64,000 nt of DNA. Origin: an uncultured Chitinophagales bacterium. Lineage in GTDB: Bacteria; Bacteroidota; Ignavibacteria; UBA10030; UBA6906. This document shows, in pieces, positions 5,540 to 30,766 of this stretch. The notes beneath the pieces are model-generated. The model saw nothing but the letters and a program-made list of their open reading frames with translations, was not told the DNA's origin and ran no database searches. Where the stretch lies: positions 38,722 through 102,721 of the forward strand of contig CAYUFU010000002.1 in the NCBI GenBank assembly GCA_964444145.1, read 5' to 3'. Position numbers and translations under genes: made by a program. Numbering within the stretch: position 1 is the stretch's first letter; every line of letters begins with the position of its first letter.

Positions 5540-7234
5540 ATGACACATTTGTCACGACGCCTCATTTTTTTTGCACTCGCACTCCCCTATGTGCTCTCAG
5601 CATTCCCGCTTTGGTCACAAACACAACGCGACACGCTTGCCGCGCCGAAGGACACGCTGAAAACCAAACAGCAAGAGCTGAAAGACTTTGAAGTGATGGA
5701 CCATCGCTGGGATATCAAGCAGCCGCCGTCGGAGCTGACGGTTGAAGGCAGCACGCTCGATCCGTACAACCAGAACATCCTCAAGGGCGATTACCCGATC
5801 ATCGGACAGAACACGTTTCTGATTTTGACTGCAATTGCGGAGAATACCTTCGAGCTTGTGAAAAACCCGACGCCAAGCGGTGTGAGTACGCGCGAGCCGC
5901 TGAGCGATCCGTTCTTCGGCAAAGGCGAGCGGCTGCTCAACAACGTGAACGCAAAACTTTCTGTTGAATTGTACGGCGGGCAGACGGCGTTCCGTCCCCG
6001 CGATTGGGAATTGAAAGCAACTGCGGTGTTCAATTTGAATTACACGAAGCTGAAAGAATTCAACGGGGTGAACATCAACGTGCGCAAAGGCGACACGCGG
6101 ACGGAGAACCATTTGGGTTTTCAGGAATTGTTTTTTGAAAAACATCTCTTCAACGTGAGCGACCGCTTCGATTTCATTTCGTTCAAAGCGGGTATTCAAA
6201 AATTCTCGAGCGACTTTCGCGGGTTCATCTTCAATGACTTCAATTTGGGCGCTCGGCTCTTCGGCAATCTCGATAACAACAAGATCCAATGGAATCTCAT
6301 CTACTTGCCGATGTTGGAAAAAGAAACCAACAGCGAGCTGAACACCGTCTTCGATGATCGTGAGCAGGACGTCGCTATTGCGAACGTGTACATTCAAGAT
6401 TGGTGGGCGCTTGGCTACACGACGCAATTCAGTTTCCATTTCAATCACGACAAGCCGACGACACATTTCGATGAGAACGGATTCCCGGTGCGTCCTGCCA
6501 TTGCGGGCAACACGAAACCGCACGACATCAAAGCATACTACGCCGGCTGGACGGGCGACGGGCACATCGGCTGGCTGAACATTACGCACGCGTTGTATCA
6601 AGTGTTCGGCAAGGACGACTTCAATTCGTTCGCGGGAAAAGCGATTGACATCAACGCGCAAATGGCGGCGCTCGAGCTTTCCGTTGACGACGATTGGCAG
6701 CGATTCAGAATTTCCGGCTTCTACGCGTCGGGCGACGACGACATTGCCGACGACAAGGGGAAAGGCTTTGACGCTATCCTCGACGCGCCTATGTTTGCCG
6801 GCGGCGGATTCAGTTGGTTCAACTCGCAGCGAGTCGGATTGCAGGGCGTGGGGCTTGTGCAGAAGCTGAGTCTCCTGCCGACGTTGCGGAGTAGCAAGTT
6901 AGAAGGACAAGCGAATTTCGTCAACCCCGGACTTCTGCTCGCAAACATTGGCTACGACGCGGACATCACGCCGAAGCTCAAAGCGATTTTCAACGTGAAC
7001 TATCTTCGCTTCGTCAACACTGCAGTCCTGCAAAACTTTACGAACCAAAACAGGATTCATAAACAGATCGGCATTGATTTCAGTCTCGGCATCATCTATC
7101 GTCCGTTCCTGAACAACAACGCGGTGTTCACGTTTTCGTTTGCGGGATTGTCGCCGTTGCAGGGTTTTAAGGATTTGTTTGAGACTTCGGCGATACAGTA
7201 CGCGGGCGTTGCATCGCTGGCGTTTACGTATTGA
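5540..7234 (+). CDS. Outer-membrane beta-barrel protein, candidate porin partner of the downstream multihaem cytochrome
   Basis: Signal peptide MTHLSRRLIFFALALPYVLSAFPLWSQ (start at ATG 5540 inside ORF 5489..7234). Alternating amphipathic strands throughout, no Cys, C-terminus ...ASLAFTY (aromatic terminal residue typical of OM barrels). Family not recognised. Confidence 0.6.
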   Translation: MTHLSRRLIFFALALPYVLSAFPLWSQTQRDTLAAPKDTLKTKQQELKDFEVMDHRWDIKQPPSELTVEGSTLDPYNQNILKGDYPIIGQNTFLILTAIAENTFELVKNPTPSGVSTREPLSDPFFGKGERLLNNVNAKLSVELYGGQTAFRPRDWELKATAVFNLNYTKLKEFNGVNINVRKGDTRTENHLGFQELFFEKHLFNVSDRFDFISFKAGIQKFSSDFRGFIFNDFNLGARLFGNLDNNKIQWNLIYLPMLEKETNSELNTVFDDREQDVAIANVYIQDWWALGYTTQFSFHFNHDKPTTHFDENGFPVRPAIAGNTKPHDIKAYYAGWTGDGHIGWLNITHALYQVFGKDDFNSFAGKAIDINAQMAALELSVDDDWQRFRISGFYASGDDDIADDKGKGFDAILDAPMFAGGGFSWFNSQRVGLQGVGLVQKLSLLPTLRSSKLEGQANFVNPGLLLANIGYDADITPKLKAIFNVNYLRFVNTAVLQNFTNQNRIHKQIGIDFSLGIIYRPFLNNNAVFTFSFAGLSPLQGFKDLFETSAIQYAGVASLAFTY

Positions 7235-7290: not shown

Positions 7291-10200
7291 ATGAATAGTT
7301 TCTTGTTGCGCGCAATTATCACTTGTGTAATCATTGAATGTCTCAGGGACACAATGATCGGCCAAGACTCCTTCATCAACCAAACCCAAGCCGACGCCGA
7401 TCGCAAGAGCAAAGGCTGCATCACGTGCCACGGCGGTATCGAGCCGATGCACAAGAGCAGCGCAGTAAAGTTAGGTTGCATTGATTGTCATGGCGGCAAT
7501 CCGAACGCGACGATTGCCGACCTCGCGCATGTGCAGCCGCGATTTCCCGACCGGTGGAAAACATCGGCGAATCCCCCGCGGACCTACACGCTGCTGAACG
7601 AAGAGTATCCCGAATTCGTTCAGTTCGTGAACCCGGGGGATTTGCGTGTTGCCGATAAAGCGTGCGGACCCTGCCACAATACGACAAGCGATCCAATCGT
7701 GCGCAACGTGCAAAAAAGTTTGATGACGACCAGCGCGCTGCTCTGGGGAGGCGCGGCGTACAACAACGGCATCGTCTCAACGAAAAATTACATTCTCGGT
7801 GAAAGTTACAGTTGGGACGGCAAGCCGCAGAAGATCAACACGGTTCCGGTGCCGAGCGCAGAGGACATGAAGAACAAAGGCGTGCTTCCGTTCGTCGTGC
7901 CGCTGCCGCGCTGGGAGATTACGCAGCCGCCGGATAATTTCCGCAGCTTCGAGCGCGGCGGCAAAGTTCCGCGCATCAATCCGTCGGAGATTGGTATTCC
8001 GAACCCATTTGAAGAGCCGGGCAGACCCGACAATAAGTTGAGCGATCGCGGAACGGGAACGCAACTGCGCATCAGCTCGCCGGTGTTGAACATCCACAAG
8101 ACGCGTTTGAACGACCCTCATCTGTCGTTCATGGGAACGAACGACAATCCGGGTGACTATCGTTCGAGTGGATGCACAGGCTGCCATGTCGTGTACGCAA
8201 ACGATCGCTCGAATTTCAACGCGGGTCCGTACGCGGTGTTTGGCAATCGTGGACAAAGCAAAACCGCCGACACGACGATTTCGAAAAGAGAGTCAGGGCA
8301 TCCTATCAAACATCAATTCACACGGGCGATTCCCTCGTCGCAATGCATGAGCTGCCACATGCACCAGCCGAACGCGTTCGTCAACACGTATCTCGGCTAC
8401 CAAATGTGGGACTACGAAACGGATGCAGAGTTGATGTATCCGAAGCAGCAGAAGTATCCGTCGAATGCGGAAGCCTTTGCGATGCTTGCGAGGAATCCGG
8501 AGGAGGCAGTGCTGCGCGGCAACTGGAGTGACCAGGAGTTTCTTGCTAATGTTTCCTCGCTCAACCCGCAGCTTGCGCACTCGCAGTTCTCTGATTACCA
8601 TGGACACGGCTGGGTGTTTCGCGCCGTCTTCAAACGAGATCGGAAAGGAAATCTGCTCGACAAGGACGGCAAAGTCATTCCCGACAACGCGCCGTTCAAG
8701 TTCGACGGCGTCGTGCCTATCGAAGGCGTCACGCCGAAGACAATGAGCGCCGCAAGTCAGAGCGCGCAGAAAGCCGTGCATTTGAAAGACATTCATCTGG
8801 AAAAAGGAATGCACTGCGTTGATTGTCATTTCAAACAGGACGCGCACGGCGATGGAAAGTTGAAAGGCGAGTTCCACAACGCGGTCGAAATTCAATGCGT
8901 TGATTGTCACGGAACCATGAGTGCGAGGGCAACGCTGAAAACCTCTGGAGTTGCCGCGCCGGCGGGCGGCACGGACTTGACGCAAACATTCACACCATTT
9001 GGCGAACGGCGTTTTCGAAAAACCGCGACGAGTATCAGACAGCGGTCGACTCTCGTGGACACCTTGAGTTGGGAAATTCTCCAGACAGTGGACTCGCACA
9101 CATCGGGCGCAGCGGGATACAATAAGAAAGCTGAAGCCGCCCATCTGATGTTGAAGGACGGTACGATTGGCAAGCCGAATTCGCCTGAGGAGATGTTCGC
9201 CCATTCATACAAAAAAATGGAATGCCAAGCTTGCCACACCTCTTGGATTACGAATTGCTTCGGCTGTCATCTCCCGCAGCAAGCGAATTGGAAGAAACAG
9301 ATGAACCACTACGAAGGCGAGCTCTCGCGCAACTGGACGACATACAATCCACAAGTGCTGCGCGACGATGCGTATATGCTCTGCCTGACGGGCACAACGA
9401 AAGGAAGCAAGATCACGACGGCACGTTCATCGAGTGCGCTCGTCCTCAGTTCGGTGAACGCGAATCGCGAACAGATTTACATTCAGCAAGCGCCGATCTC
9501 ATCACCGGGGCACAGCAGTCAGGCGTTCAATCCGCATTTCTCGCATGCCGTCCGAGCAACCGAGACGAAGCAATGCACCGATTGCCACGTCTCGTCGAAG
9601 AACGACAATAACGCGTGGATGGCGCAGTTGCTTTTGCAAGGAACGAACTTCGTCAACTTCATCGGGAAGTATGCGTACGTTGCTGCGGGCGACGGCGGAC
9701 TCGAAGCGGTGCAAGTGACCGAGCAAGACGAGCCGCAAGCGGTGATCGGAAGTTATCTGCACAGCATTGCGTATCCGGATTATTACAAGGCGCATCTCGA
9801 CAATCGGAAGCAACTCCGAACTTCCTATCATCACAGCGGCAGCGCCTTGAGCGTGCAGTTGCGCGGCGAGTATCTGTACGCGGCGTGCGGCGAAGACGGG
9901 TTCCGCGTGTATGATGTCGCAAACGTGGATAACAAAGGGTTCTCCGAACGCATCGTCACGTCACCGGTATCGCCCTTCGGGCAGGACACGCACGTGAAGA
10001 CCCGTTTCGCAACCGCGGTCGCGCTCCCGACCAACATGCCGATTGACACGCGGCGAAGGTATCGTCCGGAAAACCAAGAGCAGGCGGTCGAGTATAACGG
10101 GAAACAACTCAATCTTCATCCGTCCTATAGCTACGCCTATATCACCGACAGATATGAGGGGTTGATTCTTGTTGATGTGATGAACCTCGTGGACGGAGAC

Positions 10201-11004
10201 CCCCGAAATAATTTCTTGGAGCGTGCGCTCACGTTCAATCCCAATGGGATCTTGAATGGTGCAGTGAATCTTGCGGTTGCGGGGAATTACGTTTATGTTT
10301 GCTGCGACCGCGGCGTCGTCATCGTCAGCATCGCAGATCCGATGAAGCCACGCGTTGCCGCCGAGATTCCGGCGCCTGCAATCACGAAGCCGAAAGCGAT
10401 TGCCATTCAATTCCGCTACGCGTTCGTCGTTGATGACCAAGGTGTGAAGGTGATTGACTTGACGTGGATGGATCAGCCGAAGCTCGTGAAGAGCGCCGTG
10501 GTTCCGCTGCAAGATGCGAATGATGTTTACGTTGCGCGAACGTACGCGTACGTTGCAGCCGGCGCTCAAGGGCTGGCGATTATTGACGTTGAAAATCCAG
10601 AAGCGCCGAGGCTTGAAAAGTTGTTCACAGCGGACGGCGCTATCACTGATGCGCAAGGAGTGAAAGTCGCCTCGACCAACGCGAGCCTGTTCGCGTACGT
10701 TGCCGATGGGAAAAATGGTTTGCGTGTCATTCAGCTCACGTCGCCGAAAACGCCCGGCTATTTAGGCTTCAGTCCGAAGCCCGTGCCGCAATTGATCGCG
10801 ACGATGCCGATGCGCGGCAGAGCGCTTGCTGTCTCGAAAGGGATGGATCGCGACCGCGCGGTGGACGAAAGCGGCAATCAGGTCAGCGTGTTCGGCAGGC
10901 TCGGCTCGCGCCCGTTCACGCACGATGAAATGCGGCAGATGTATTTGAAAGAGGGAAAGTTGTGGACTGTGACGGATGATGGGAGTGTTTCTCTCAAGAA
11001 ATGA
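7291..11004 (+). CDS. Decahaem c-type cytochrome fused to a C-terminal LVIVD-repeat beta-propeller (1237 aa)
   Basis: Ten CXXCH motifs in the first ~770 aa: CITCH, CIDCH, CGPCH, CTGCH, CMSCH, CVDCH x2, CQACH, CFGCH, CTDCH. The C-terminal ~450 aa consist of LVIVD-type repeats (YLYAACGEDGFRVYDVANVDN, YAYITDRYEGLILVDVMNL, YVYVCCDRGVVIVSIADPMKP, YAFVVDDQGVKVIDLTWMDQP, YAYVAAGAQGLAIIDVENPEAP, FAYVADGKNGLRVIQLTSPKTP). The N-terminus MNSFLLRAIITCVIIECL is hydrophobic (signal/anchor). Confidence 0.85.
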   Translation: MNSFLLRAIITCVIIECLRDTMIGQDSFINQTQADADRKSKGCITCHGGIEPMHKSSAVKLGCIDCHGGNPNATIADLAHVQPRFPDRWKTSANPPRTYTLLNEEYPEFVQFVNPGDLRVADKACGPCHNTTSDPIVRNVQKSLMTTSALLWGGAAYNNGIVSTKNYILGESYSWDGKPQKINTVPVPSAEDMKNKGVLPFVVPLPRWEITQPPDNFRSFERGGKVPRINPSEIGIPNPFEEPGRPDNKLSDRGTGTQLRISSPVLNIHKTRLNDPHLSFMGTNDNPGDYRSSGCTGCHVVYANDRSNFNAGPYAVFGNRGQSKTADTTISKRESGHPIKHQFTRAIPSSQCMSCHMHQPNAFVNTYLGYQMWDYETDAELMYPKQQKYPSNAEAFAMLARNPEEAVLRGNWSDQEFLANVSSLNPQLAHSQFSDYHGHGWVFRAVFKRDRKGNLLDKDGKVIPDNAPFKFDGVVPIEGVTPKTMSAASQSAQKAVHLKDIHLEKGMHCVDCHFKQDAHGDGKLKGEFHNAVEIQCVDCHGTMSARATLKTSGVAAPAGGTDLTQTFTPFGERRFRKTATSIRQRSTLVDTLSWEILQTVDSHTSGAAGYNKKAEAAHLMLKDGTIGKPNSPEEMFAHSYKKMECQACHTSWITNCFGCHLPQQANWKKQMNHYEGELSRNWTTYNPQVLRDDAYMLCLTGTTKGSKITTARSSSALVLSSVNANREQIYIQQAPISSPGHSSQAFNPHFSHAVRATETKQCTDCHVSSKNDNNAWMAQLLLQGTNFVNFIGKYAYVAAGDGGLEAVQVTEQDEPQAVIGSYLHSIAYPDYYKAHLDNRKQLRTSYHHSGSALSVQLRGEYLYAACGEDGFRVYDVANVDNKGFSERIVTSPVSPFGQDTHVKTRFATAVALPTNMPIDTRRRYRPENQEQAVEYNGKQLNLHPSYSYAYITDRYEGLILVDVMNLVDGDPRNNFLERALTFNPNGILNGAVNLAVAGNYVYVCCDRGVVIVSIADPMKPRVAAEIPAPAITKPKAIAIQFRYAFVVDDQGVKVIDLTWMDQPKLVKSAVVPLQDANDVYVARTYAYVAAGAQGLAIIDVENPEAPRLEKLFTADGAITDAQGVKVASTNASLFAYVADGKNGLRVIQLTSPKTPGYLGFSPKPVPQLIATMPMRGRALAVSKGMDRDRAVDESGNQVSVFGRLGSRPFTHDEMRQMYLKEGKLWTVTDDGSVSLKK

Positions 11005-11111: not shown

Positions 11112-11146
11112 AAAAACAATATCGAATATTGAACAAGGAATGTCGG
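11112..11146 (+). repeat. Cassette repeat, copy B (AAAAACAATATCGAATATTGAACAAGGAATGTCGGA)
   Basis: Direct repeat of copy A, 107 bp downstream. Overlaps the TTG-initiated 5' end of ORF 11129..11566. Confidence 0.55.
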
Positions 11147-11155
11147 ATTTTTCAA

Positions 11156-11566
11156 ATGAGGACGGTGATGGATTCGAGACAGAAGCGACAGTTTGATCTC
11201 GAAGAGCGGCTCATTGATTTTTCCTGCATGATCATTGACATCGTCGAGGCGCTCCCCGATACGAAAGTAGGCAATCATGTAGCGGGACAGATTCTGCGGT
11301 CTGGAACTTCACCTGCGCCGAATTATGCCGAAGCGACGAGCGCGGAATCGCGACAGGACTTCATTCACAAGATGAAAGTTTCGCTCAAGGAGTTTCGTGA
11401 GACGAACGTGTGGCTCAAAGTCATAAAGCGAAGAGCCCTTATCAAGCCTTTGGAAAAAATGGAGATTGCGCTGACCGAATGCCGCGAACTCATTTCGATT
11501 TTCGTAACGAGCATCGCGACAGCGAAACGAAATCTGAGGACAATCCCGAGGGCAAGTTCCAAATGA
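11156..11566 (+). CDS. Four-helix-bundle protein (TIGR02436-like, the family encoded inside 23S rRNA intervening sequences)
   Basis: MRTVMDSRQKRQFDLEERLIDFSCMIIDIVEALPDTKVGNHVAGQILRSGTSPAPNYAEATSAES...KMKVSLKEFRETNVWLKVIKR matches the conserved layout of this family. A paralogue lies at 17150-17590. ORF-track start 11129 is TTG; ATG at 11156 preferred. Confidence 0.7.
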   Translation: MRTVMDSRQKRQFDLEERLIDFSCMIIDIVEALPDTKVGNHVAGQILRSGTSPAPNYAEATSAESRQDFIHKMKVSLKEFRETNVWLKVIKRRALIKPLEKMEIALTECRELISIFVTSIATAKRNLRTIPRASSK

Positions 11567-12588
11567 AGTTCACCGGCACTTCGATATTCAATATTCGTCA
11601 TTCCTTGTTCGATATTGCTCTTATCCTTTTTGCGTTGTGGGGCGATGCTTTTGCACAAGGAAAATACCAAACGCTTGGTCCTTCCGGCTGCGGCATCGGT
11701 CAGGACAAGTGCCACGCGACCGAAAACGGACAGATGATCAAGCAGCACAAGAACTCCGCAACAAGTATTGCCGATGGAGAAAATTCACAAAAGTACGCGG
11801 ACGCGCTCGGCGTGAAAGAGTTTCTCCAAAGCCCCCAGTGCATGAATTGCCATGGAACGATTATTTCCGGCAAAGAAGGGAAGGAAGTCGAAGAAGGGGT
11901 GAGTTGCGAGAGTTGTCATGGCGCGGGAAGCGGCTACAAAGATCCGCACTCCGAAGGCCCGAAAGGTAGTGAAGGACAGCCTCGTCCTGGCTACACAAAA
12001 AGCCTCGCGCTGGGACTTGCCGATTTGAAGAAGCCGGAAGAGATAGCAAAAGCATGCGTGCGTTGTCACTACACGACGGATCAAAGACTTATCAGCGCAG
12101 GCCATCCCGATGGTGCCAAGTTTGCCTACAAGTCGAAAATGAAGGATGTAGCGGAGCACTGGAGGTACCGCGACAAAAAGAATGTTCCCGAAGGAGCGGT
12201 ATTCAAAGCAGCGATGGATCGTCGGGCGCCGGGCGCGAAATTCTCTCAGACGCCCAAGCCGGTTGCCCAGCAGGCTCCTGCGCAGCCACCGGTAAAAAGT
12301 CCAGCGCCGACTCCCCAAAAGCCGACTCCGCAAAGTGTTGACGTCACTGCGCCGCCGTTGCAGAAGCAGAACATCGGCGATCAGCCCGCGCCAACGCCGC
12401 GCGTGCGTAAGCCACCACCACCGCCTACACCTGTTGCCGCCGATCGCGACGCTGATCCCCCGCCGACTCCGGCCGAACTGAAAGATCTGCCGCCGTTTCC
12501 GGCGATCACCGAGAGCACGCGCGTTGATCGCATGCTGTTGTTGCTGAAAAAAAGGTTGGAGCTACTCTACACGAAGACAAAAAACTGA
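11563..12588 (+). CDS. Small exported c-type cytochrome (3 canonical CXXCH plus one CX6CH-like site) with a Pro-rich C-terminal tail
   Basis: Signal peptide MKFTGTSIFNIRHSLFDIALILFALWGDAFAQG. Haem motifs CMNCH, CESCH, CVRCH, plus CGIGQDKCH. Tail PKPVAQQAPAQPPVKSPAPTPQKPTPQ...KPPPPPTP. ORF-track start 11410 overlaps the four-helix-bundle gene in another frame and is rejected. ATG 11563 yields the signal peptide. Confidence 0.75.
   Translation: MKFTGTSIFNIRHSLFDIALILFALWGDAFAQGKYQTLGPSGCGIGQDKCHATENGQMIKQHKNSATSIADGENSQKYADALGVKEFLQSPQCMNCHGTIISGKEGKEVEEGVSCESCHGAGSGYKDPHSEGPKGSEGQPRPGYTKSLALGLADLKKPEEIAKACVRCHYTTDQRLISAGHPDGAKFAYKSKMKDVAEHWRYRDKKNVPEGAVFKAAMDRRAPGAKFSQTPKPVAQQAPAQPPVKSPAPTPQKPTPQSVDVTAPPLQKQNIGDQPAPTPRVRKPPPPPTPVAADRDADPPPTPAELKDLPPFPAITESTRVDRMLLLLKKRLELLYTKTKN
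11577..11620 (-). repeat. Cassette terminal repeat, copy C (inverted relative to A/B); lies inside the signal-peptide coding region of the 11563 cytochrome
   Basis: Reverse complement GAGCAATATCGAACAAGGAATGACGAATATTGAATATCGAAGTG matches copy A at both ends. Confidence 0.6.
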
Positions 12589-12619: not shown

Positions 12620-12625
12620 AGGTTT

Positions 12626-12712
12626 ATGGAAGAAGAAAAGCAAGAGTCGAAATTGCTTTATGAGGATCTGACCTATCAAATCATTGGCGCGGCGATGGAG
12701 GTCTCCGAGTAG
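12626..12712 (+). pseudogene. Truncated GxxExxY-family gene fragment (28 codons then TAG)
   Basis: MEEEKQESKLLYEDLTYQIIGAAMEVSE* matches the conserved N-terminus (LTxKIIGAAIEVH) of GxxExxY proteins, another family typical of 23S rRNA IVS. No continuation in any frame. Confidence 0.5.
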
Positions 12713-12831: not shown

Positions 12832-14460
12832 ATGTCACTCGGTCAAACACAACTCAAACGTCTCGAACAGTATAAGGATCGTTGGACGTCATTCGGCGCA
12901 ACGACGGGCATCATCGAGCTGTCCGAAAAACCGACGCCTGAAGTCTTGAAACGCTTCGAGATCTTCAAAAGCTACGACGACAAATTCCTCGAGAAGATTT
13001 CGCCTGACGTTTCGGTTGCGCGATGGAAAGCAGGAACGGTGCTGTTCGAAGAGGGAAGTTATCTTGATCTTGCGTTCTTCGTTTTCTCGGGGACGGTGGA
13101 TGTGTATTTGGAAAAAACGCGAGGCACGCCATCACCTATTTTCGACCGTGGTAAAACACGAGTGATTACGGCTCCTCTTGAAGGCGGCACGCGCCCGACA
13201 TCGCCGCAGCGAACGATGTTCATGACGCAAGTCGGCAAGCAAGAACGCGCGACAGGGCAAATCACCTTTCTCGCTGCGATGGATTTCAATTTGCCGGCGG
13301 CAGCAACGATGCGGTTGGGCACAGGAGAGATGTTTGGTGAAATCGGCGCGCTGAGCGGCTGGCCCCAATCCGTCACCGCCAAAACTGCGAGCGAGTGCGT
13401 GCTCGTGCAAATCCGCACGGCGGCACTGCGACTCATGCGCAAACGCTCGAGTGCCCTCAAGCAGCGTCTCGACGCATTATACAAAGAACGCTCGCTGATC
13501 GCGCAGTTGCAGGCGACCCCGCTCTTTCGGGCTGCAAGCGAGTCGTTCATTCGCGCCGTTGCAGAAAAAGTTGACCTTGTCTCCTGCGAGCCGGACGATG
13601 TGCTGACGCGTGAGGGCGAACCGTGCGACGCGCTCTATTTGGTGCGCAGCGGTTTCATAAAACTCTCCCAGAAAGTGGGAGAGGGTGAGATTGTCGTCTC
13701 GTACCTTTCGAAAGGAAGTACACTCGGCGATGCGGAATTGTTGCTCGAGGGAAATCCTGGCTGGCTCTTCACGGCATCGTCGAAAGAGTATTCGGAGCTT
13801 GTCAAAATCCCGCGCACAGAATTCCAGAATCTCATGACGCAAAGCCCCGGTGCTGAGCGCATGTTGTGGGAATCCGTTGTTGCGCGTGTCAAGGAATCGG
13901 GCTTCAATCGGAAGAACATCGGGCAAGCGGAGTTTCTTTCCACCGCAATCAACAAAGGCTTGGTGGAAGGCAACAGCATGCTCGTCATTGATCTCAATGT
14001 TTGCACGCGTTGCGATGACTGTGTGCGCGGCTGTTCGGATACACACGGCGGCATACCGCGTTTCGTGCGCGAAGGGGACAAGGTTGGTAACTTTCTCGTT
14101 ACGCGTTCGTGCTACCATTGTCAAGACCCCGTCTGCTTGGTTGGCTGCCCGACGGGAGCAATACGGCGGACGGACGTCGGCGACGTTGTTGCCATCGAGG
14201 ATAACCTTTGCATCGGGTGCGCGTCATGCGCCAACAATTGTCCCTACGACGCGATCGTGATGCACAACGTCGGCGGCATGTGGCCCAGCGACATGATCCC
14301 CGAAGGGTTGCGCGGAAAAGAGAAAACACTCGCGACAAAATGCGATTTATGCTACAAGGACCCGGCGGGTCCCGCCTGCGTGCGCAGTTGTCCGCACGGC
14401 TGTGCAGTGCGTGTCGGCGACGTGCAGGAATTTCAATCGCTGCTCTGGAAGGAAGTGTGA
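12832..14460 (+). CDS. Two cyclic-nucleotide-binding (cNMP) domains fused to an NrfC/PsrB/HybA-like ferredoxin with four [4Fe-4S] clusters
   Basis: cNMP domain 1: GTVLFEEGSYLDLAFFVFSGTVDVY...GEMFGEIGALSGWPQSVTAKTASECVLVQI. cNMP domain 2: DDVLTREGEPCDALYLVRSGFIKL...LGDAELLLEGNPGWLFTASS. Four Cys clusters: CTRCDDCVRGC, CYHCQDPVCLVGCP, CIGCASCANNCP, CDLCYKDPAGPACVRSCP. No Tat or signal peptide, so predicted cytoplasmic. ORF-track start 12826 is GTG; ATG at 12832. Confidence 0.8.
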   Translation: MSLGQTQLKRLEQYKDRWTSFGATTGIIELSEKPTPEVLKRFEIFKSYDDKFLEKISPDVSVARWKAGTVLFEEGSYLDLAFFVFSGTVDVYLEKTRGTPSPIFDRGKTRVITAPLEGGTRPTSPQRTMFMTQVGKQERATGQITFLAAMDFNLPAAATMRLGTGEMFGEIGALSGWPQSVTAKTASECVLVQIRTAALRLMRKRSSALKQRLDALYKERSLIAQLQATPLFRAASESFIRAVAEKVDLVSCEPDDVLTREGEPCDALYLVRSGFIKLSQKVGEGEIVVSYLSKGSTLGDAELLLEGNPGWLFTASSKEYSELVKIPRTEFQNLMTQSPGAERMLWESVVARVKESGFNRKNIGQAEFLSTAINKGLVEGNSMLVIDLNVCTRCDDCVRGCSDTHGGIPRFVREGDKVGNFLVTRSCYHCQDPVCLVGCPTGAIRRTDVGDVVAIEDNLCIGCASCANNCPYDAIVMHNVGGMWPSDMIPEGLRGKEKTLATKCDLCYKDPAGPACVRSCPHGCAVRVGDVQEFQSLLWKEV

Positions 14461-15299
14461 TGCCAAAGTCACTACTCAGATCAATCCCTCTGGACAAGCT
14501 CGTCCGCTCTCCCGATTGGGCGGCGGGATTGCTTATCGCAAGCCTCGTGCTCGGCGCAATGTACGCACTGAACGCGTACCTTGACGAAATCAATCCGGGT
14601 AACTGGTGGGGCTTGACGTACGGCTGGCTTTCGGCGCTGCTCATGCTTGGCGCGGGTTTGTATGGCGTGCGACGAAGAATGTTAAACCGCAACATTGGCA
14701 ACTCAAAAGTCTGGGTACAGTTTCATATTTACGGGGGCTTGCTCGCGGGTTTGCTTTTCTTGTTTCATACCGGCTTTCGTTTTCCGAGCGGTCTGTTCAA
14801 TTGGCTGCTCTGGCTGCTCTCGGTTTGGGTGACGGTCAGCGGCGTCATCGGCGTCGTGTTGCAGCGATGGATTCCGCGCATTCTTGCGTCGGGACTTTCG
14901 ACCGAAGCGGTGTACGAGCGCATTCCTGAACTCATCGGGCACGTACGCGAGCGAGCCGAGAAACTTGCGAGTTCCTGTACGATGCCTGTGCAGGATTTTT
15001 ACCGCGCGACGCTCGCAGCGGAGTTCGCCATGCCGCGTCCGCGCCTCATTTATTATTTCGACGTGACCGGGGGGATTCAGTCGTGTATCAGACGCTTCGA
15101 GTTTCTTCGCCGCGTCCTCTCGGTCGAGGAGAAAGAAAAGCTCGATAGCTTACAAGACATGTATCGAACGAAATTGGAATTGGATGCACATTACTCGCTG
15201 CAGACTGCATTGCGGTGGTGGCTCTTCTCGCACGTGCCGCTCTCGCTTGTACTGCTGCTGATGATCGCACTGCATGTTTGGGCAGTGTGGTATTACTAA
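14460..15299 (+). CDS. Integral membrane protein (5 predicted TM helices, His-rich), candidate b-type cytochrome-like membrane anchor
   Basis: Start ATG overlaps the upstream TGA (gtgATGcc), i.e. translational coupling. Helices AAGLLIASLVLGAMYALNAYL, WWGLTYGWLSALLMLGAGLYGV, VWVQFHIYGGLLAGLLFLFHTGF, LFNWLLWLLSVWVTVSGVIGVVL, WWLFSHVPLSLVLLLMIALHVWAVWYY. His residues sit inside helices 3 and 5. Haem ligation is inference only. Confidence 0.65.
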   Translation: MPKSLLRSIPLDKLVRSPDWAAGLLIASLVLGAMYALNAYLDEINPGNWWGLTYGWLSALLMLGAGLYGVRRRMLNRNIGNSKVWVQFHIYGGLLAGLLFLFHTGFRFPSGLFNWLLWLLSVWVTVSGVIGVVLQRWIPRILASGLSTEAVYERIPELIGHVRERAEKLASSCTMPVQDFYRATLAAEFAMPRPRLIYYFDVTGGIQSCIRRFEFLRRVLSVEEKEKLDSLQDMYRTKLELDAHYSLQTALRWWLFSHVPLSLVLLLMIALHVWAVWYY

Positions 15300-15434: not shown

Positions 15435-17051
15435 ATGCCAAACTCAAAAGACGAAAACAGAACCAAAGGCACCTTCAGCGACGTGCGCATGCCCGTCGCG
15501 AGAACATACATTAGACCGCTCTCGCGCAAGCTGATGATGACTCTCGGCGGCATTGTTTGTGGAGTCGTTGTTGCCTACTATGCCGTTGACTCCCTGCTGT
15601 TGAAGAATACATTCATTGCGAGCGGTCCGGTGGCGGCGAGCCACGCCAACTTCGAGAGCGAATGCGCGAAGTGCCATACGCCGTTCCGCGGCGTGAACGA
15701 TAGCAGGTGCACGACCTGTCATGAGAAGACGAACGACAAGTTGGGGGTATATTCCTTCGCCGCGCATTACCTGTACCGATCGGCAATGCCTGCGCGTATT
15801 GCCGATGCAAAGCAGAAACACGGCGCAGATGAGAAAATGTGCGCTGCTTGTCACCCCGATCATAAGGGACGCAACGCAAGCATCACCGTCGTGACAGATG
15901 CGAAATGCGCCACGTGCCACTACTCCTCGTTCAATGACGATCATCCTGAGTTTGAGTTTGCACGCACGAATGCCGTGGACGATTCGACCTTGAAGATGAC
16001 CCATGTAAAGCACACAAAAGAAGTATTGAAGGAACTTAATACGGCGAACATCGAAACCGCCTGTCTCTATTGCCACAATCCGATGGCGGATGGGAAAGCC
16101 TTCAAGCCGCTCGACTTCGACATGCACTGCGGCGATTGCCACCTCACGGCGAATACGGCATCCGCGTCGCTGACGATTCGCGACCCAAGCAATCCCAGTG
16201 CTCTCGGCGTCGAGACGTTGGAGATGATTCAACAACGAAGAGGTCCCGGCACGCGTTGGGCATTCTATACGAACCCAAACGAATTTACTATTACCGGCTC
16301 GCGCGTACAGAAAGCTCCCGTCTATCATCGCGATCCGTGGATTCTTGAAAACCTCAAAAGGATTCGCTCGATGCTCTACACGGAGGTCGGCCTCTCGGAT
16401 TTGTTGAATGCCGCAGGTGCCGGAGCGGAGAAGGGCAATCAGCAGTCGTATAACGAGGCGATTCAAACGCTCCGCGAGTATGTCACCGGCTTGCGCCCTC
16501 GTCCAGAAAAAGAAATTCAACAGGAGCTTACGACGATTGATTCCTTGTTGGATGTTGCGTCGCGCGTTGTGAATACGCCGGCAGTGACGCTCTCTGATTC
16601 GCTCTTTCGCATAACGGTGCGCATGGAAAACCCAAGCCTCACGGCGCAACAGAAGCAGGATATTTCGGATTTCGGCGAGAAGCTCGCGAAGCCGTGCCTC
16701 GAGTGTCATTACGTTGAGCGTGCGGCGATTCTTGGCGTGAAGGCGATCCAGCGAACGTTTTCGCGTGCCGAGTTCGATCATCGCGCGCATATTACGCAGC
16801 GCCGCTGCCTCGAATGCCATGACGTAATACCGATTGACGATGCGCTGTCGGACGATTCACTCGCAGTTACACGAGCCGCCGCGAAGATTCCGACGCTTGA
16901 TATCGCAGCGACACACAATATTCCGAAAAAAGAAAACTGCATCGAGTGTCATACAGCAGGCGCAGGGTCGAATGAATGCATCACATGCCACTTCATGCAT
17001 CCGAACAAAACGCAGCGCGGGAGTTTACAACTATTCGTTTCTAAGCCCTGA
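15435..17051 (+). CDS. Membrane-anchored decahaem c-type cytochrome
   Basis: N-terminal TM helix MMTLGGIVCGVVVAYYAV. Ten CXXCH motifs: CAKCH, CTTCH, CAACH, CATCH, CLYCH, CGDCH, CLECH x2, CIECH, CITCH. Confidence 0.85.
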   Translation: MPNSKDENRTKGTFSDVRMPVARTYIRPLSRKLMMTLGGIVCGVVVAYYAVDSLLLKNTFIASGPVAASHANFESECAKCHTPFRGVNDSRCTTCHEKTNDKLGVYSFAAHYLYRSAMPARIADAKQKHGADEKMCAACHPDHKGRNASITVVTDAKCATCHYSSFNDDHPEFEFARTNAVDDSTLKMTHVKHTKEVLKELNTANIETACLYCHNPMADGKAFKPLDFDMHCGDCHLTANTASASLTIRDPSNPSALGVETLEMIQQRRGPGTRWAFYTNPNEFTITGSRVQKAPVYHRDPWILENLKRIRSMLYTEVGLSDLLNAAGAGAEKGNQQSYNEAIQTLREYVTGLRPRPEKEIQQELTTIDSLLDVASRVVNTPAVTLSDSLFRITVRMENPSLTAQQKQDISDFGEKLAKPCLECHYVERAAILGVKAIQRTFSRAEFDHRAHITQRRCLECHDVIPIDDALSDDSLAVTRAAAKIPTLDIAATHNIPKKENCIECHTAGAGSNECITCHFMHPNKTQRGSLQLFVSKP

Positions 17052-17149: not shown

Positions 17150-17590
17150 ATGGAATACACAAAACTCAGAAACAAGAATCGCGGCTACATGAAGTTGGAT
17201 GTGTGGCAAAAGGGAATCGTGCTGTTCCAGCTCGTTTGGAATCTCATCACGAAAGCAAAAGTAGATTTTAAGCTGCGGTCACAAATCGCCAATGCTGCTC
17301 AAGGGATTTCATCCAACATCGCGGAAGGCTATAGCAGACGCTCGGTAAAGGAGTATCTTCAATTCTTGTATGTTTCTCTCGGCTGTCTTTCTGAAACGCT
17401 CACGAGGTCTGTGGGGCTAAAAGTGATAAACCAAATCTCTGAAGACGAGTTCAATCAGATTGACGTTTTGCATTATGAAATTGAAAACAAACTGTGGCGA
17501 TTGGTCGAAAGTTTAGGGCGGAAGAAAGACGATGGCACGTGGAGCGATCGCGTCTCAGAGGATTTATCGGAATACCCAACAATCCAATAA
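17150..17590 (+). CDS. Four-helix-bundle protein (TIGR02436-like), second copy
   Basis: MKLDVWQKGIVLFQLVWNLITKAKVDFKLRSQIANAAQGISSNIAEGYSRRSVKEYLQFLYVSLGCLSE carries the family signatures LDVWQK, NIAEGY and EYLxFLxxSxGSLxE. Alternative start at M14 (17189). The C-terminal codons overlap the right repeat arm. Confidence 0.75.
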   Translation: MEYTKLRNKNRGYMKLDVWQKGIVLFQLVWNLITKAKVDFKLRSQIANAAQGISSNIAEGYSRRSVKEYLQFLYVSLGCLSETLTRSVGLKVINQISEDEFNQIDVLHYEIENKLWRLVESLGRKKDDGTWSDRVSEDLSEYPTIQ

Positions 17591-17635: not shown

Positions 17636-18538
17636 ATGAAAGCGCGTCTCTTTTGTAAAACAGGCCAGCTCGCCGGCGCGAGCTTCGAGATTGGGACGGA
17701 CGCGATGATCGGCAAGAGTGCCGAATGCGTGATTCAACTCTACCCGCAGTTGATCTCGTCGCGCCATGCGCGCATTTATTTTGACGAAAAAGCGCAGAGC
17801 TATTTTCTCGAAGACCTCAATAGCCGTAATGGAACGAAATTAGACGGCACTCGTGTCAAAACAAAGGAGCGGCTCGGCTCGCTGCACGTGATTACGCTCG
17901 CGAACACGTTCGATTTTCTTTTCCAAGTGATTGACGAGAGCCAACAGATCGCAGCGCCGAAGGGTGAGCCTGCAAAACCAGCGACGCTCAAAACAGAGTT
18001 GGGGAGCGGCTACGTGCCACAGCAAACGCCGCCCCCCGCAATGCAGCAGGTTGCACCGAAAACCGTAATGAGCGACGAGCCATTGGCGAACGCTCCGCTC
18101 GCGTCTCACTCGCGGGAGAAAACGATTTTCGAGAACGATGCAATTCCCGTCTTTCGACAACCGAAGGAACAGGAGAAACGAGCCGACGCGAAGATTCCAG
18201 AAGAGAGTATCCCCACCCCCATGCCTCGTCCGCAGACGCCCGCAGCAAAACCTATCACCTTTGCAGTGGTAGTGGACTCGACGGGAAAATCCTACGAACT
18301 CAACGAAGGCTCGACCATTGTCGGCAGAGACGCATCGTGCGGCATCTGCATCGAACATGGCTCGGTCTCGCGCAAGCACGCGGAGTTGCTGCTCAAAGGC
18401 GGCAAGTTGACCGTCAAAGATTTGGGGAGCAAGAATCATACATTCATCAACGATCAGAAAATCAAAGTTGAGACGGAAATCCACGAGGGCGTAACGCTGA
18501 CCTTTGGCGTGGTGAGGGCGCGGGTGGTTAAGGCCTGA
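17636..18538 (+). CDS. Protein with two FHA domains separated by a Pro/Ala-rich linker
   Basis: FHA 1: IGKSAECVIQL...SSRHARIYFDEKAQSYFLEDLNSRNGTKLDG. FHA 2: TIVGRDASCGICIEHGSVSRKHAELLLKGGKLTVKDLGSKNHTFINDQKI. Both carry the G-R...S-R/H...N-G-T/hydrophobic signature. Confidence 0.8.
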   Translation: MKARLFCKTGQLAGASFEIGTDAMIGKSAECVIQLYPQLISSRHARIYFDEKAQSYFLEDLNSRNGTKLDGTRVKTKERLGSLHVITLANTFDFLFQVIDESQQIAAPKGEPAKPATLKTELGSGYVPQQTPPPAMQQVAPKTVMSDEPLANAPLASHSREKTIFENDAIPVFRQPKEQEKRADAKIPEESIPTPMPRPQTPAAKPITFAVVVDSTGKSYELNEGSTIVGRDASCGICIEHGSVSRKHAELLLKGGKLTVKDLGSKNHTFINDQKIKVETEIHEGVTLTFGVVRARVVKA

Positions 18539-18904: not shown

Positions 18905-19681
18905 ATGAGACAGACACACACGGCAATCGTTACGATGGTTGCTCTCTTGCATTGCCTGACAGCGGCGCAGCCGAGCGGCAAATCTTCGACACCCAACAAG
19001 GAAACACCGAAACCTGTCCCCGACGGCATGGCGCTGGTCGAGGGAGGCTGGTTCCACATGGGACGCAACGAGGTTCTTTCTGAACCGGGGTATCGAGTAT
19101 ACGTCAGGTCGTTCTTCATGGACAAGCACGAAGTGACTGTTGGACAGTACCGCAAGTTTTGCGATGCGACGGGGCGAGCGATGCCAGCCGATCCTTCATG
19201 GGAAACGAGCGATGATCATCCGATTGTCAATGTCTCATGGGATGACGCAAACGCGTATGCACGCTGGGCAGGCAAGCGGCTGCCGACAGAAGCCGAGTGG
19301 GAATATGCCGCAAGAGGTGGGAACAAGAGCCGCGGCTTCAGGTATAGCGGCGGCAAAACGCTGGATGAGATTGCATGGTATCACGCCAATGCAAACGATC
19401 AAGCGCATCCTGTCGGCGAAAAGCAACCGAATGAGTTGGGCTTGCACGATATGAGCGGCAACGTCCATGAATGGTGTGCGGACTGGTACGACCCGAACTA
19501 TTACACGAAAAGCCCAGCGGAAAATCCGAAAGGACCGACGAGCGGTACGACGCGCGTTGTACGTGGTGGGTCGTTTGGCGGCGGTGGGCTTGAATATGAT
19601 CCGTATGAAGTGTCCCAGCGGTTCGATGAAAAGCCAACGACCAAGGGAGAGAATTGGGGCTTTCGATGTGTCAAAGACTAA
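18905..19681 (+). CDS. Secreted formylglycine-generating-enzyme (FGE/SUMF1, PF03781) family protein
   Basis: Signal peptide MRQTHTAIVTMVALLHCLTAAQPSG. Motifs HEVTVGQYRKF, WDDANAYARWAGKRLPTEAEWEYAARGG, GNVHEWCADWY, RVVRGGSF. Confidence 0.8.
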   Translation: MRQTHTAIVTMVALLHCLTAAQPSGKSSTPNKETPKPVPDGMALVEGGWFHMGRNEVLSEPGYRVYVRSFFMDKHEVTVGQYRKFCDATGRAMPADPSWETSDDHPIVNVSWDDANAYARWAGKRLPTEAEWEYAARGGNKSRGFRYSGGKTLDEIAWYHANANDQAHPVGEKQPNELGLHDMSGNVHEWCADWYDPNYYTKSPAENPKGPTSGTTRVVRGGSFGGGGLEYDPYEVSQRFDEKPTTKGENWGFRCVKD

Positions 19682-24793: not shown

Positions 24794-24954
24794 GAGCGAG
24801 CCTCAGTCGTGATTTTGATCAGAACGCATTGTGCTTCGCCGTTTAATATAGAAACCCTTGTGTGTAACAAGCAACTGTCGTGCATTGCACGCCATCAGTT
24901 TTTTTCCCTTATTGATATCAACCGCTGAGGAATGAACGCGCTCCTACGACAACC

Positions 24955-30079: not shown

Positions 30080-30766
30080 ATGGGCATAATTGAGCGAAAA
30101 GAGCGAGAAAAGGAGATGCGTCGAGAGGAGATTATTGACGCTGCGCAGGAGATTTTCTTTACGAAGGGAATCGCGAACGCAACCATGGACGAGATCGCCG
30201 AAAAGGCGGAGTTGAGCAAAGGGACGCTCTACCTCTATTACAAGAGCAAGGAGGATTTGTATCTCGCCGTCGCGATGCGGGGCTCGGATATCATGTACAA
30301 GATGTTCGTCGACGCGACGCCGCTCACGAAGCCGACGTTGCAACGGATTTCCGATCTCGGCGAAGCCTACTTTGCGTTTTTCAACATGCACCGCGACTAT
30401 TTTCGCATGTATCAATACTTCGAGACTTCGCAGTTCCACAAGCAGGTCTCACCTGGAATGCTCAACCTCTGCGCGTCGCATGACGACAAAATTTGGCAAT
30501 TAGTCATCGGCTTGATTCAACAGGGCAAAGACGAAGGTCTCTTGCGAGACGACATTGATCCAGCCGAATCGGCGATCATCTTGTGGTCGAGCGGCAACGC
30601 GCTGATGCGGCAAATGGACCGCGACGACAAGTACTGGAAGGAGCACATGAAGATTGATTTGGAGAAGACGATGCGAAAGTCGTACGAGTTGTTACTCGAA
30701 GGGATGATGACAAAAAAAGGAAAGACAAAATTCCAATTACTTAAAGCCATGAAGGAGGCTGCATGA
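30080..30766 (+). CDS. TetR-family transcriptional regulator
   Basis: HTH region [44 protein letters not shown]. Confidence 0.85.

Follow-up and report, generated by a model that had tools for sequence, protein, structure and literature searches.

A widespread CNB-ferredoxin and putative di-haem cytochrome b module as a candidate regulated electron conduit

Gene content of the locus

The window (the whole stretch of 64,000 nucleotides from an uncultured Chitinophagales bacterium that was analysed) contains genes for multihaem cytochromes, an iron-sulfur protein (gene A), a membrane protein (gene B) and several associated proteins. The Ptd names used below refer to the ptdABCDEFG cluster, which was named in a 2024 preprint (bioRxiv 10.1101/2023.11.21.568154), where its function is stated to be completely unknown.

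3745-5334, + strand: double HbpS-like (haem-binding/degrading-like) protein (Pfam HbpS-like, 1.4e-29, two stretches; synteny)
5540-7234, + strand: outer-membrane beta-barrel, AlgE/OprD-like, no Pfam family; candidate conduit porin
7291-11004, + strand: secreted fusion of a decahaem cytochrome and an LVIVD beta-propeller (1237 aa; 10 CXXCH; Pfam LVIVD, 6e-22)
11563-12588, + strand: gene D, PtdD-like secreted c554-like cytochrome (3 CXXCH; Pfam Cytochrome_C554, 1.8e-9)
12832-14460, + strand: gene A, PtdE-like CNB-CNB-4x[4Fe-4S] protein (542 aa; ORF, Pfam, homologues)
14460-15299, + strand: gene B, PtdF-like 5-TM putative di-haem cytochrome b (279 aa)
15435-17051, + strand: gene C, PtdG-like periplasmic decahaem cytochrome c with an N-terminal TM anchor (TM 33-57; 10 CXXCH)
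17636-18538, + strand: protein with two FHA domains, phospho-Thr readers (Pfam FHA, 3.6e-35, two stretches)
19702-22047, + strand: PtdC-like FAD/NAD(P) flavoprotein with two FHA domains and a C-terminal Fer2 domain (Pfam Pyr_redox_2/3, FHA twice, Fer2)

The decahaem cytochromes that were originally predicted to flank A and B are those at 7291-11004 and 15435-17051, each with 10 CXXCH motifs.

The iron-sulfur module of gene A

The ORF of gene A spans 12826/12832-14460, with the ATG at 12832 being also the start of the database twin P0001, and a database search yields at least 1284 homologues. The protein consists of three domains:

12949-13446, + strand: CNB-fold domain 1 (residues ~40-205; phmmer alignment to PKA-R, 3of1/5j3u)
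13507-13881, + strand: CNB-fold domain 2 (residues ~226-350; best Pfam stretch 250-337; PDB alignments)
13969-14457, + strand: four-cluster [4Fe-4S] ferredoxin module of the HycB/HydN/NrfC superfamily (residues ~380-542; 16 Cys)

Inspection of the sequence reveals no hydrophobic segment, TM or signal peptide, and the N-terminus is a CNB domain, in agreement with the original prediction of a cytoplasmic protein that lacks a Tat signal. The ferredoxin module matches the Pfam profiles Fer4_11 (34 bits vs 26.2), Fer4_9 and Fer4_7, all above the cut-offs. The four Cys clusters noticed earlier correspond to the motifs C391-x2-C-x2-C-x3-C401, C427-x2-C-x4-C-x3-C439, C460-x2-C-x2-C-x3-C470 and C504-x2-C-x8-C-x3-C520, and all 16 cluster Cys, along with C524, are invariant in 121 of the 121 homologues of A (56-100% identity). 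These features support the view that A is cytoplasmic and cluster-competent.

The best PDB sequences for the module are HycB (7z0s_B, 1e-17) and the HDCR subunits HycB3/4 (to 1e-13), followed by PsrB (2vpw_B, 1e-12), and the NCBIfam equivalogs all score far below their cut-offs (NrfC 40 vs 377.6 bits, HybA 35 vs 263, DsrO 51 vs 200, TtrB 43 vs 416). Given these low scores, the lack of a Tat signal and the lack of an NrfD-family match in the partner protein B, an assignment to NrfC/PsrB/HybA sensu stricto was rejected; the type proposed from the sequence holds at the level of the superfamily, but the module is nearer to the cytoplasmic HycB/HydN wires. HycB, HydN and HDCR HycB3-4, which belong to the same superfamily as NrfC, PsrB, DmsB and FdnH, share with A the four Fer4_11-type Cys motifs, the cytoplasmic location and the absence of a Tat signal, but do not possess the two N-terminal CNB domains. 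We know of no HycB/HydN-type ferredoxin that docks on a b561-like membrane protein.

The CNB domains of gene A

Gene A matches the Pfam profile cNMP_binding (PF00027) over two stretches (E 1.3e-28, 99.3 bits vs the gathering score of 27.5), and the two domains follow one another in the same arrangement as the tandem CNB-A/CNB-B in the regulatory subunits of PKA and PKG. The two cNMP-binding domains recognized at the outset are thus complete as folds, but the phosphate-binding Arg (the equivalent of CAP R82 and PKA RI-alpha R209) is absent from both domains in the window. The phosphate-binding cassette of domain 1 (residues 168-185, nt 13333-13386, FGEIGALSGWPQSVTA) contains Gln179 in place of this Arg, and G169, E170, G176, W177, P178 and Q179 are invariant in 121 of 121 homologues. 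The equivalent segment of domain 2, LGDAELLLEGNPGWLFTA, has no conserved Arg: G299 is invariant and position 300 is E or D, and position 310, which is Gly in the window, varies within the family (G69/T11/R9/N7/K6/E6). Sequence alignments with PDB entries relate domain 2 to PKA-R, the hERG/EAG CNBHD and SthK, and its best matches include the CNB-homology domains of KCNH channels, which do not bind cNMP.

These results bear on the model of the original prediction, in which the conduit described below would be gated by cAMP or cGMP at both CNB domains of A. Both domains clearly have the CNB fold, in the arrangement known from PKA and PKG, the Gly-Glu of the cassette is kept, and the distant fusion protein P0386 retains a canonical cassette with Arg (FGE...PRTATI), so that the ancestor may have responded to cNMP. 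However, loss of the cassette Arg lowers cNMP affinity by orders of magnitude in CAP, PKA, HCN and Epac, and in this family the Arg is replaced by Gln in every homologue in domain 1 and by variable residues in domain 2; another distant fusion, P0281, has Ala at this position, domain 2 resembles the non-binding KCNH domains, and no cyclase gene was seen within the cluster. Canonical binding of cAMP or cGMP by the CNB domains of this clade therefore appears unlikely, and gating of the conduit by cAMP or cGMP at both domains is considered very unlikely. The invariant GWPQS motif suggests a different ligand, or else an allosteric or structural role, and the invariant Gln-for-Arg cassette provides a clean test case for the repurposing of CNB domains.

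The fusion of cNMP sensor domains to an iron-sulfur subunit, singled out earlier as unusual, is so in comparison with characterised systems, but more than 1,200 homologues are present in the databases, and PtdE and PtdF already appear in the 2024 preprint. The possibility that A is a transcription factor of the CRP/FNR type was rejected given that it contains no HTH, ends in a ferredoxin module and, in a number of species, forms a fusion with a membrane protein. Domain 1 also contains a Ser/Thr/Pro-rich insertion of ~55 aa (residues ~97-150); a phospho-target of the FHA domains within it was considered, and stays speculation given that the insertion is poorly conserved except for the 'PIFD' motif.

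Gene B and its coupling to gene A

Genes A and B meet at the sequence GTGATG, where the stop codon of A (TGA, 14458-14460) and the start codon of B (ATG, 14460-14462) overlap by 1 nt, and not by ATGA as had been reported; the overlap amounts to 4 nt only if B starts at the GTG at 14457. In other loci, A and B are separated by 1-4 nt or are fused; of 80 species loci, 8 have them as a single ORF. Fusion proteins include P0100, P0102, P0242, P0281, P0386 and P0248. In the distant member L084, the preceding gene is again one for an iron-sulfur protein, ending in KCDLC...GPAC...C, and the next gene encodes a multihaem protein with a TM anchor. The fusions, the near-universal A-B-decahaem synteny, the invariant Cys and His residues and the topology support the view that A and B are physically coupled. 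An apparent fusion of B to a c-type cytochrome, P0320, is Arg/Ala-rich, looks like a frameshifted read-through of high-GC sequence and was not counted.

The AlphaFold model of gene B (pLDDT 94) contains five TM helices, as predicted, with TM4 and TM5 separated by a cytoplasmic helical domain of ~105 aa. The intramembrane His residues that had been noticed in helices 3 and 5 are H89 (14724-14726) and H103 (14766-14768) in TM3, and H258 (15231-15233) and H272 (15273-15275) in TM5, both pairs with the spacing H-x13-H. None of the four varies among 120 close homologues, and they are kept in 119-123 of 124 distant representatives; the family comprises 3405 clusters at 50% identity. The iron-sulfur module, where fused, precedes TM1, and the RRR loop that links TM2 to TM3 lies in the cytoplasm, which places the N-terminus of B in the cytoplasm and the C-terminus in the periplasm; the positive-inside loops agree. 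The C-terminus is thus next to the decahaem protein C, which is anchored with its N-terminus in.

Gene B scores below the threshold of the Pfam profile PF01292, "prokaryotic cytochrome b561 / Ni_hydr_CYTB" (20.0 bits vs 30.1, E 6e-4), and a search with the 280-aa version that starts at GTG 14457 gives no Pfam or NCBIfam match at E<=0.01. In a permissive scan of 66 family members, weak matches were obtained to Ni_hydr_CYTB (49 members, best 3.3e-5) and DUF4405 (43 members). No NrfD-family match was detected in Pfam, NCBIfam or the permissive scan; Ferric_reduct (PF01794) gives no match at E<=0.01 and is absent from the 25 families most often matched by the 66 members at E<=5; a Foldseek comparison of the model with PDB returns nothing significant. 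By these scores, B is related to prokaryotic cytochrome b561 only below the threshold and does not count as a member of that family. Together with the four His residues and the 5-TM model, the weak matches make B look like a di-haem cytochrome b with putative bis-His ligation.

Conservation of the gene neighbourhood

The gene order c554-like D, A, B, decahaem C, FHA protein, flavoprotein is kept across ~10 phyla and is found in Ignavibacteriota, Bacteroidota, Rhodothermales, KSB1, Calditrichota, Acidobacteriota, Nitrospirota, Zixibacteria and others. Gene D, with its Pro-rich C-terminal half, lies immediately upstream of A, and this position is conserved, as is that of the FHA protein after C. 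Gene C (Pfam Cytochrome_C7/c3_2) comes after B in almost every locus, and 70 of 77 homologues have exactly 10 CXXCH motifs. The flavoprotein is syntenic in most loci, and both its GxGxxG motifs and the pattern C721-x4-C726-x2-D729...C766 are conserved in 51 homologues. The AlgE-like barrel (a family of at least 6866 proteins) often accompanies the module, together with the LVIVD decahaem protein, which is present in many loci and has a weak ExtM-like NCBIfam match; the HbpS-like protein, with an N-terminal hydrophobic, lipoprotein-like segment, travels with these two. A Ser/Thr kinase is encoded in 23 of 39 long loci and a PP2C phosphatase in 14 of the 39. About 11-13 of 80 loci contain B-C-FHA(-flavoprotein) with neither A nor any ferredoxin-type ORF nearby, so A is not obligatory; most of these keep the flavoprotein, and two (L017 and L045) are also without a detectable flavoprotein gene. 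Pfam and NCBIfam searches identified no quinone-site subunit (NrfD, NarI or other) in the cluster. The A-B module, uncharacterised so far, is widespread, and cAMP or cGMP probably do not control it.

A candidate NAD(P)H-to-periplasm conduit

The favoured explanation is that A, B and C are the inner-membrane core of a quinone-independent, regulated conduit from NAD(P)H to the periplasm or the cell exterior, to which we assign roughly even odds (probability of about 0.5). In this scheme, the co-encoded FAD/NAD(P)H flavoprotein with its [2Fe-2S] domain, a candidate cytoplasmic electron donor or acceptor, would be the partner of A, and A would provide a cytoplasmic chain of four [4Fe-4S] clusters docked on (in some species, fused to) the cytoplasmic face of B. 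Two b-type haems would be held between TM3 and TM5 of B, one by H89 and H258 near the cytoplasm and the other by H103 and H272 near the periplasm. From these haems, electrons would pass to the membrane-anchored periplasmic decahaem C, then to the c554-like cytochrome and, via the AlgE-like outer-membrane barrel, to the surface decahaem/beta-propeller protein. The net reaction would most likely be NAD(P)H oxidation with delta-psi-assisted export of electrons to periplasmic or extracellular acceptors, the outward direction being argued from thermodynamics. The CNB domains of A, the FHA domains and the often linked Ser/Thr kinase and PP2C would be regulatory. The membrane entry or exit point for electrons that was originally envisaged is thus well supported as an A-B unit joined to multihaem cytochromes, without the gating by cAMP or cGMP. 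Several observations count against the conduit: B stays below the Pfam threshold, some loci have no A and two of these no detectable flavoprotein gene either, and the third ligand position of the Fer2 domain in the flavoprotein is Asp, not Cys.

The b561/HydC/FdnI-type relatives of B normally react with quinones, which also counts against a quinone-independent route. Under this alternative, B would be a cytochrome b of the HydC/FdnI/CybB type that reacts with quinones, B and C together would amount to a CbcL-like quinol:cytochrome c oxidoreductase in two parts, and A and the flavoprotein would supply electrons to the quinone pool, or withdraw them from it, via B. CbcL of Geobacter resembles the pair B and C in that a di-haem membrane module of the b561/HydC type works with a periplasmic multihaem c in extracellular electron transfer. 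Its HydC/FdnI-like di-haem b is fused to a 9-haem c, whereas b and c are separate genes in the window, and it draws electrons from menaquinol with no cytoplasmic iron-sulfur protein or flavoprotein, whereas the b protein here is fused or coupled to an iron-sulfur wire. The repeated covalent fusion of the four-cluster wire to B argues for direct transfer from iron-sulfur clusters to haem. Furthermore, the His residues of B are distributed 2+2 over two helices, in contrast to the 1+1+2 pattern of FdnI and HydC, the flavoprotein retained in most A-less loci is of the NAD(P)H type with an iron-sulfur domain of its own, and every similarity score is weak. A quinone-reactive B is therefore considered unlikely.

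The direction of flow is left unfixed by the composition of the cluster, and electrons might instead run inward, from extracellular or periplasmic low-potential donors through the cytochromes, B and A to the flavoprotein and NAD(P)+ or another cytoplasmic acceptor. The complexes of sulfate reducers that have the same layout, with periplasmic multihaem c, membrane cytochrome b and cytoplasmic iron-sulfur subunits, run inward; such flow would build membrane potential, and the heavy regulation would suit an uptake route. Transfer to NAD(P)+ from common donors, e.g., Fe(II), would however be uphill and against delta-psi, requiring donors near or below -0.3 V, and the carriers are mostly members of the FCB group, Acidobacteriota and KSB1, in whose examined loci lithotrophic partner genes are not evident. 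Inward flow thus appears decidedly unlikely.

Returning to the outward conduit, a broader proposal can be made tentatively, as less likely than not: the module may be the inner-membrane core of a widespread new class of trans-envelope conduit in which electrons would pass from NAD(P)H through flavin, [2Fe-2S], 4x[4Fe-4S] and a new family of di-haem cytochromes b to periplasmic and surface decahaem proteins without quinones, with the flux set by a non-cNMP ligand at the degenerate CNB domains and by FHA-read Ser/Thr phosphorylation, as a regulated bacterial counterpart of the eukaryotic NOX and ferric reductases. To our knowledge, the known routes of extracellular electron transfer (CymA, ImcH, CbcL, NetBCD, Ndh2/DMK) all exit the inner membrane via the quinone pool. 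If the proposal is correct, NAD(P)H would be wired straight to periplasmic multihaem cytochromes, a different bioenergetic solution, and the conduit would dissipate energy instead of conserving it, which would account for the many regulatory domains. The families involved are large and entirely unannotated, and occur in lineages that are abundant in soil, sediment and the sea (Ignavibacteriota, Bacteroidota, Rhodothermales, KSB1, Acidobacteriota and Nitrospirota). Assignment of their function would alter how metagenomes are read for iron, humic-substance and electrode respiration potential, and would extend to the 'ptd' genes, which are highly transcribed in oxygen-deficient zones.

Comparison with known systems

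The module may be regarded as an architectural analogue of the Tmc, Hmc and DsrMKJOP complexes, with which it shares the logic of transmembrane transfer between periplasmic multihaem c, a membrane di-haem b and cytoplasmic iron-sulfur proteins. The families of the subunits are unrelated, however: those complexes contain a NarI-type cytochrome b and a cytoplasmic HdrD/CCG subunit, in contrast to the b561-like 5-TM protein and the HycB-like four-cluster wire of the window, and neither A nor B has a NarI-type or HdrD/CCG match in Pfam or NCBIfam. The CNB and FHA domains and the flavoprotein of the window module are likewise lacking in Tmc, Hmc and Dsr. The iron-sulfur and haem modules show weak DsrO/DsrJ/HmcA-like similarity, far below the cut-off.

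By analogy, the module could also function as a modular bacterial equivalent of NOX and ferric reductases. As in NOX, FRE, STEAP and MsrQ, the His pairs of B lie ~13 apart on TM3 and TM5 and the N-terminus is cytoplasmic. In contrast to the 6-TM core of NOX, FRE and STEAP, B has 5 TMs and the ~105-aa cytoplasmic insertion; the sites for flavin and NAD(P)H reside on another protein, a [2Fe-2S] and four [4Fe-4S] clusters would lie in between, and the output would go to multihaem cytochromes.

Among publications on combinations of CNB, 4Fe-4S and multihaem proteins, of FHA or LVIVD with multihaem proteins, and on ptdABCDEFG, the 2024 preprint alone proved relevant; a paper on LVIVD in Tenderiales deals with an unrelated protein. 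The gene content of PtdC-G (flavoprotein, small multihaem protein, CNB-FeS protein, membrane 'ferric reductase-like' protein and decahaem protein) is found among the window genes, as judged from the preprint's description. The preprint counts two 4Fe-4S clusters, whereas gene A has four Cys motifs, and the window differs further in the two FHA domains and Fer2 domain of its flavoprotein and in its separate FHA protein. The outer module of Ptd consists of the pentahaem PtdA and the porin PtdB, in contrast to the double HbpS-like protein, AlgE-like barrel and LVIVD decahaem protein of the window. Ptd hosts include Gammaproteobacteria and Nitrospirales (bioRxiv 10.1101/2023.11.21.568154), and the homologous loci analysed here come also from Chromatiales and Nitrospirota.

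Gene A: cyclic-nucleotide-binding fold and ferredoxin module

The following genes are relevant to the analysis:
3745-5334, +, double HbpS-like protein
5540-7234, +, barrel
7291-11004, +, LVIVD decahaem cytochrome
11563-12588, +, gene D, c554-like cytochrome
12826/12832-14460, +, gene A, ORF for a 542-aa protein with two CNB-fold domains and a four-[4Fe-4S] module
14460-15299, +, gene B, 279-aa protein, putative di-haem cytochrome b
15435-17051, +, gene C, TM-anchored periplasmic decahaem cytochrome
17636-18538, +, two-FHA protein
19702-22047, +, flavoprotein

A Pfam search with the A protein identifies the cNMP_binding domain twice (E 1.3e-28, 99.3 bits) and, at the C-terminus, an above-threshold Fer4_11/Fer4_9/Fer4_7 module. 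Within the last 160 residues lie four ferredoxin motifs, C391-x2-C-x2-C-x3-C, C427-x2-C-x4-C-x3-CP, C460-x2-C-x2-C-x3-CP and C504-x2-C-x8-C-x3-CP; these 16 cysteines and C524 show no variation across 121 aligned homologues (56-100% identity). Comparison with the sequences of solved structures places the module closest to cytoplasmic four-cluster "wires", namely HycB of E. coli formate hydrogenlyase (1e-17) and HycB3/HycB4 of HDCR, followed by PsrB (deposited as "NrfC protein", 1e-12), NarH, FdnH, EbdB and others, and the protein scores far under the cut-off of every NCBIfam equivalog for NrfC, HybA, DsrO, TtrB and HydN. Thus, the domain fusion of the original prediction stands, whereas the proposed NrfC/PsrB likeness holds at the superfamily level only. 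The latter is consistent with a cytoplasmic location; neither a signal peptide nor a hydrophobic segment was found in the A sequence, in agreement with the predicted lack of an export signal.

In CNB domain 1, the cassette FGEIGALSGWPQSVTA aligns with FGELALMYNSPRAATV of PKA regulatory subunits, so that the phosphate-binding Arg is replaced by Gln179. Residues G169, E170, G176, W177, P178 and Q179 are all invariant among the 121 family members. In domain 2, for which the best PDB matches include the CNB-homology domains of hERG/EAG, the Arg-equivalent position is occupied by Gly in the window and is variable across the family. Because the key cassette Arg is missing, a loss that the original prediction itself named as evidence against it, canonical cAMP/cGMP binding is unlikely in the window clade, and the proposed gating by cyclic nucleotides is not supported. 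The distant A-B fusion P0386 retains a canonical phosphate-binding cassette, "FGE...PRTATI" (FGEISALARTPRTATI, aligned to window residues 168-185), where the window clade has GWPQSVTA; another distant fusion, P0281, has Ala at the Arg position. A truly cNMP-gated conduit is, given Gln179 in 121/121 sequences, the least likely of the readings considered here. The strict conservation of the GWPQS motif argues for a maintained function, ligand-binding or allosteric. Sensing of cyclic nucleotides could be an ancestral trait that the window clade has lost.

Gene B: a putative di-haem membrane protein

The stop codon of A (TGA, 14458-14460) and the start codon of B (ATG, 14460-14462, the same start as in the database twin) have one base in common, so the overlap noticed originally is real and the junction is TGATG rather than ATGA. 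The B protein matches no above-threshold family in Pfam or NCBIfam. Its very confident AlphaFold model (pLDDT 94) contains four TM helices, a helical cytoplasmic domain of ~105 residues and a long fifth helix that ends within the membrane. The pattern H-x13-H occurs twice, as H89/H103 on TM3 and H258/H272 on TM5; all four residues are unchanged in each of 120 close homologues, and 119-123 of 124 distant representatives have them too, which bears out the predicted intramembrane histidines. The conservation of H244 is lost among the distant representatives. The two His pairs and the topology recall the ferric-reductase domains of NOX/STEAP and are nearer to these than to FdnI. B appears to be a diverged branch of the di-haem cytochromes b that lacks annotation. 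Its family is large, with 3405 clusters at 50% identity (E<=1e-3).

The two proteins probably form a physical unit. Two homologues of A are end-to-end A-B fusions (P0100, 822 aa; P0102, 838 aa), and P0242, P0281, P0386 and P0248 are further fusions among distant B relatives; when each species was represented by one genome, B relatives were found in 179 species, and in 8 of the 80 retrieved loci A and B share a single reading frame. A cultured species, Sulfidibacter corallicola M133, is among the carriers (locus L056, NZ_CP071793, ~1.03 Mb). In L084, a locus with a very distant B, the upstream gene, which overlaps the start of B, closes with a fourth-cluster motif (KCDLC...GPAC...C); the downstream gene encodes a TM-anchored multihaem cytochrome.

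The fusions also fix the topology of B: the FeS module precedes TM1, and the loop between TM2 and TM3, which is rich in Arg, faces the cytoplasm. TM3 and TM5 therefore run in-to-out, which would pair H89 with H258 towards the cytoplasm and H103 with H272 towards the periplasm. B has its C-terminus in the periplasm, adjoining the N-in anchored decahaem cytochrome C.

Genomic context

The flanking ORFs 7291-11004 and 15435-17051 contain ten CXXCH motifs each, as originally described; homologues of C have exactly ten in 70 of 77 cases. Two syntenic loci and a phmmer survey of 80 loci reveal a near-universal order, D, A, B, C, the two-FHA protein and a flavoprotein of ~780 aa. Besides dinucleotide motifs for FAD and NAD(P), the flavoprotein carries two FHA domains and, at its C-terminus, a Fer2 domain in which C721-x4-C726-x2-D729...C766 is conserved. 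The conserved D729 occupies the third-Cys position of plant-type [2Fe-2S] ferredoxins; Asp is the third ligand in E. coli SdhB, and C707, 94% conserved, could substitute for the third Cys. Of 39 long loci, 23 encode a Ser/Thr kinase and 14 a PP2C; the window encodes neither.

About 11-13 of the 80 loci lack A: they consist of B-C-FHA(-flavoprotein), and the upstream sequence, covered for up to 10 kb, has no ferredoxin-type ORF. A is therefore not a subunit that the system requires but an optional addition to the wire. In this variant (L017, L020, L025, L027, L032, L034, L041 and others), B-C-FHA-flavoprotein is followed by the HbpS-like, barrel and LVIVD decahaem genes, and such a locus can share one MAG with an A-containing paralogous locus (L031/L032). 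The double HbpS-like protein (GlcG/DUF336, haem-binding/degrading-like), which has a hydrophobic/lipoprotein-like N-terminal segment, is always found together with the barrel and the LVIVD decahaem cytochrome.

Proposed electron route

An electron-carrier chain from NAD(P)H to the outer cytochromes is the simplest model that gives each conserved part a role. Electrons would pass from NAD(P)H to FAD and [2Fe-2S] of the flavoprotein, then to the four [4Fe-4S] clusters of A, the putative haems b(in) and b(out) of B, the decahaem cytochrome C and, finally, periplasmic and outer-membrane cytochromes. Pfam and NCBIfam profile searches of the cluster reveal no quinone-site subunit (NrfD-, NarI- or other). 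Alternatively, B could also, or instead, be a quinone-reactive module like CbcL/FdnI, a role that is unlikely but the most probable of the three alternatives. In layout, the nearest characterised functional analogue is Tmc/Hmc/Dsr, and in chemistry NOX/FRE/STEAP, the subunit families being different in both cases. A chain running inward, like Tmc/Hmc/Dsr, is somewhat less probable still; outward flow would be downhill from NAD(P)H and helped by the membrane potential. The outward route would dissipate rather than conserve energy, which would rationalise the dense regulation (two CNB domains, four FHA domains, kinase/phosphatase).

Full-text literature searches yielded a single relevant source, a 2024 preprint on Alphaproteobacteria from oxygen-deficient zones (bioRxiv 10.1101/2023.11.21.568154). 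It describes an operon, ptdABCDEFG, that includes a pentahaem, a porin, an FAD/NAD(P) oxidoreductase, a tetrahaem, a CNB-FeS protein (PtdE), a "ferric reductase-like" membrane protein (PtdF) and a decahaem, which the authors call previously undescribed and of completely unknown function. By description, A and B match PtdE and PtdF; there are differences in the outer module and in the FHA domains. The system is more ordinary than the original prediction suggested, being widespread, already noticed and unlikely to be cNMP-gated; it is more interesting as a proposed trans-envelope system, NAD(P)H-linked and under heavy regulation, that is complete and conserved and rests on two large protein families without annotation.

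Other observations

Small genes missing from the syntenic loci lie between the operon genes (11129-11566, 17150-17590, 12625-12712 and 18905-19681): two 23S_rRNA_IVP (four-helix-bundle) genes, a GxxExxY-like remnant of ~29 aa and an FGE-sulfatase gene. Imperfect inverted repeats flank two of the insertions, measuring 46 nt (11004-11049/11577-11622) and 37 nt (12590-12626/12780-12816); one of the arms overlaps cytochrome gene D at its 5' end. These genes resemble small mobile cassettes that have spread into the spacers between genes.

Elsewhere in the window, the following features were identified:
30745-36646, downstream, ordinary RND efflux operon (outer-membrane factor, HlyD-family adaptor, AcrB-family pump)
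39213-41693, DsbD-like protein (DsbD_N, DsbD_TM, thioredoxin-like)
41735-44278, next gene, 847-aa fusion of a pyridine-nucleotide-disulfide oxidoreductase, Fer4_5 (NapH-like) and a 4Fe-4S dicluster

The last two may be another membrane redox pair. The product of 23312-24802 (-) matches Por_Secre_tail, the C-terminal sorting domain of the T9SS, weakly and below threshold (E 6.7e-4; 20.3 bits, cut-off 27 bits); this hint would be in keeping with an origin in the FCB group (Ignavibacteriota/Bacteroidota).
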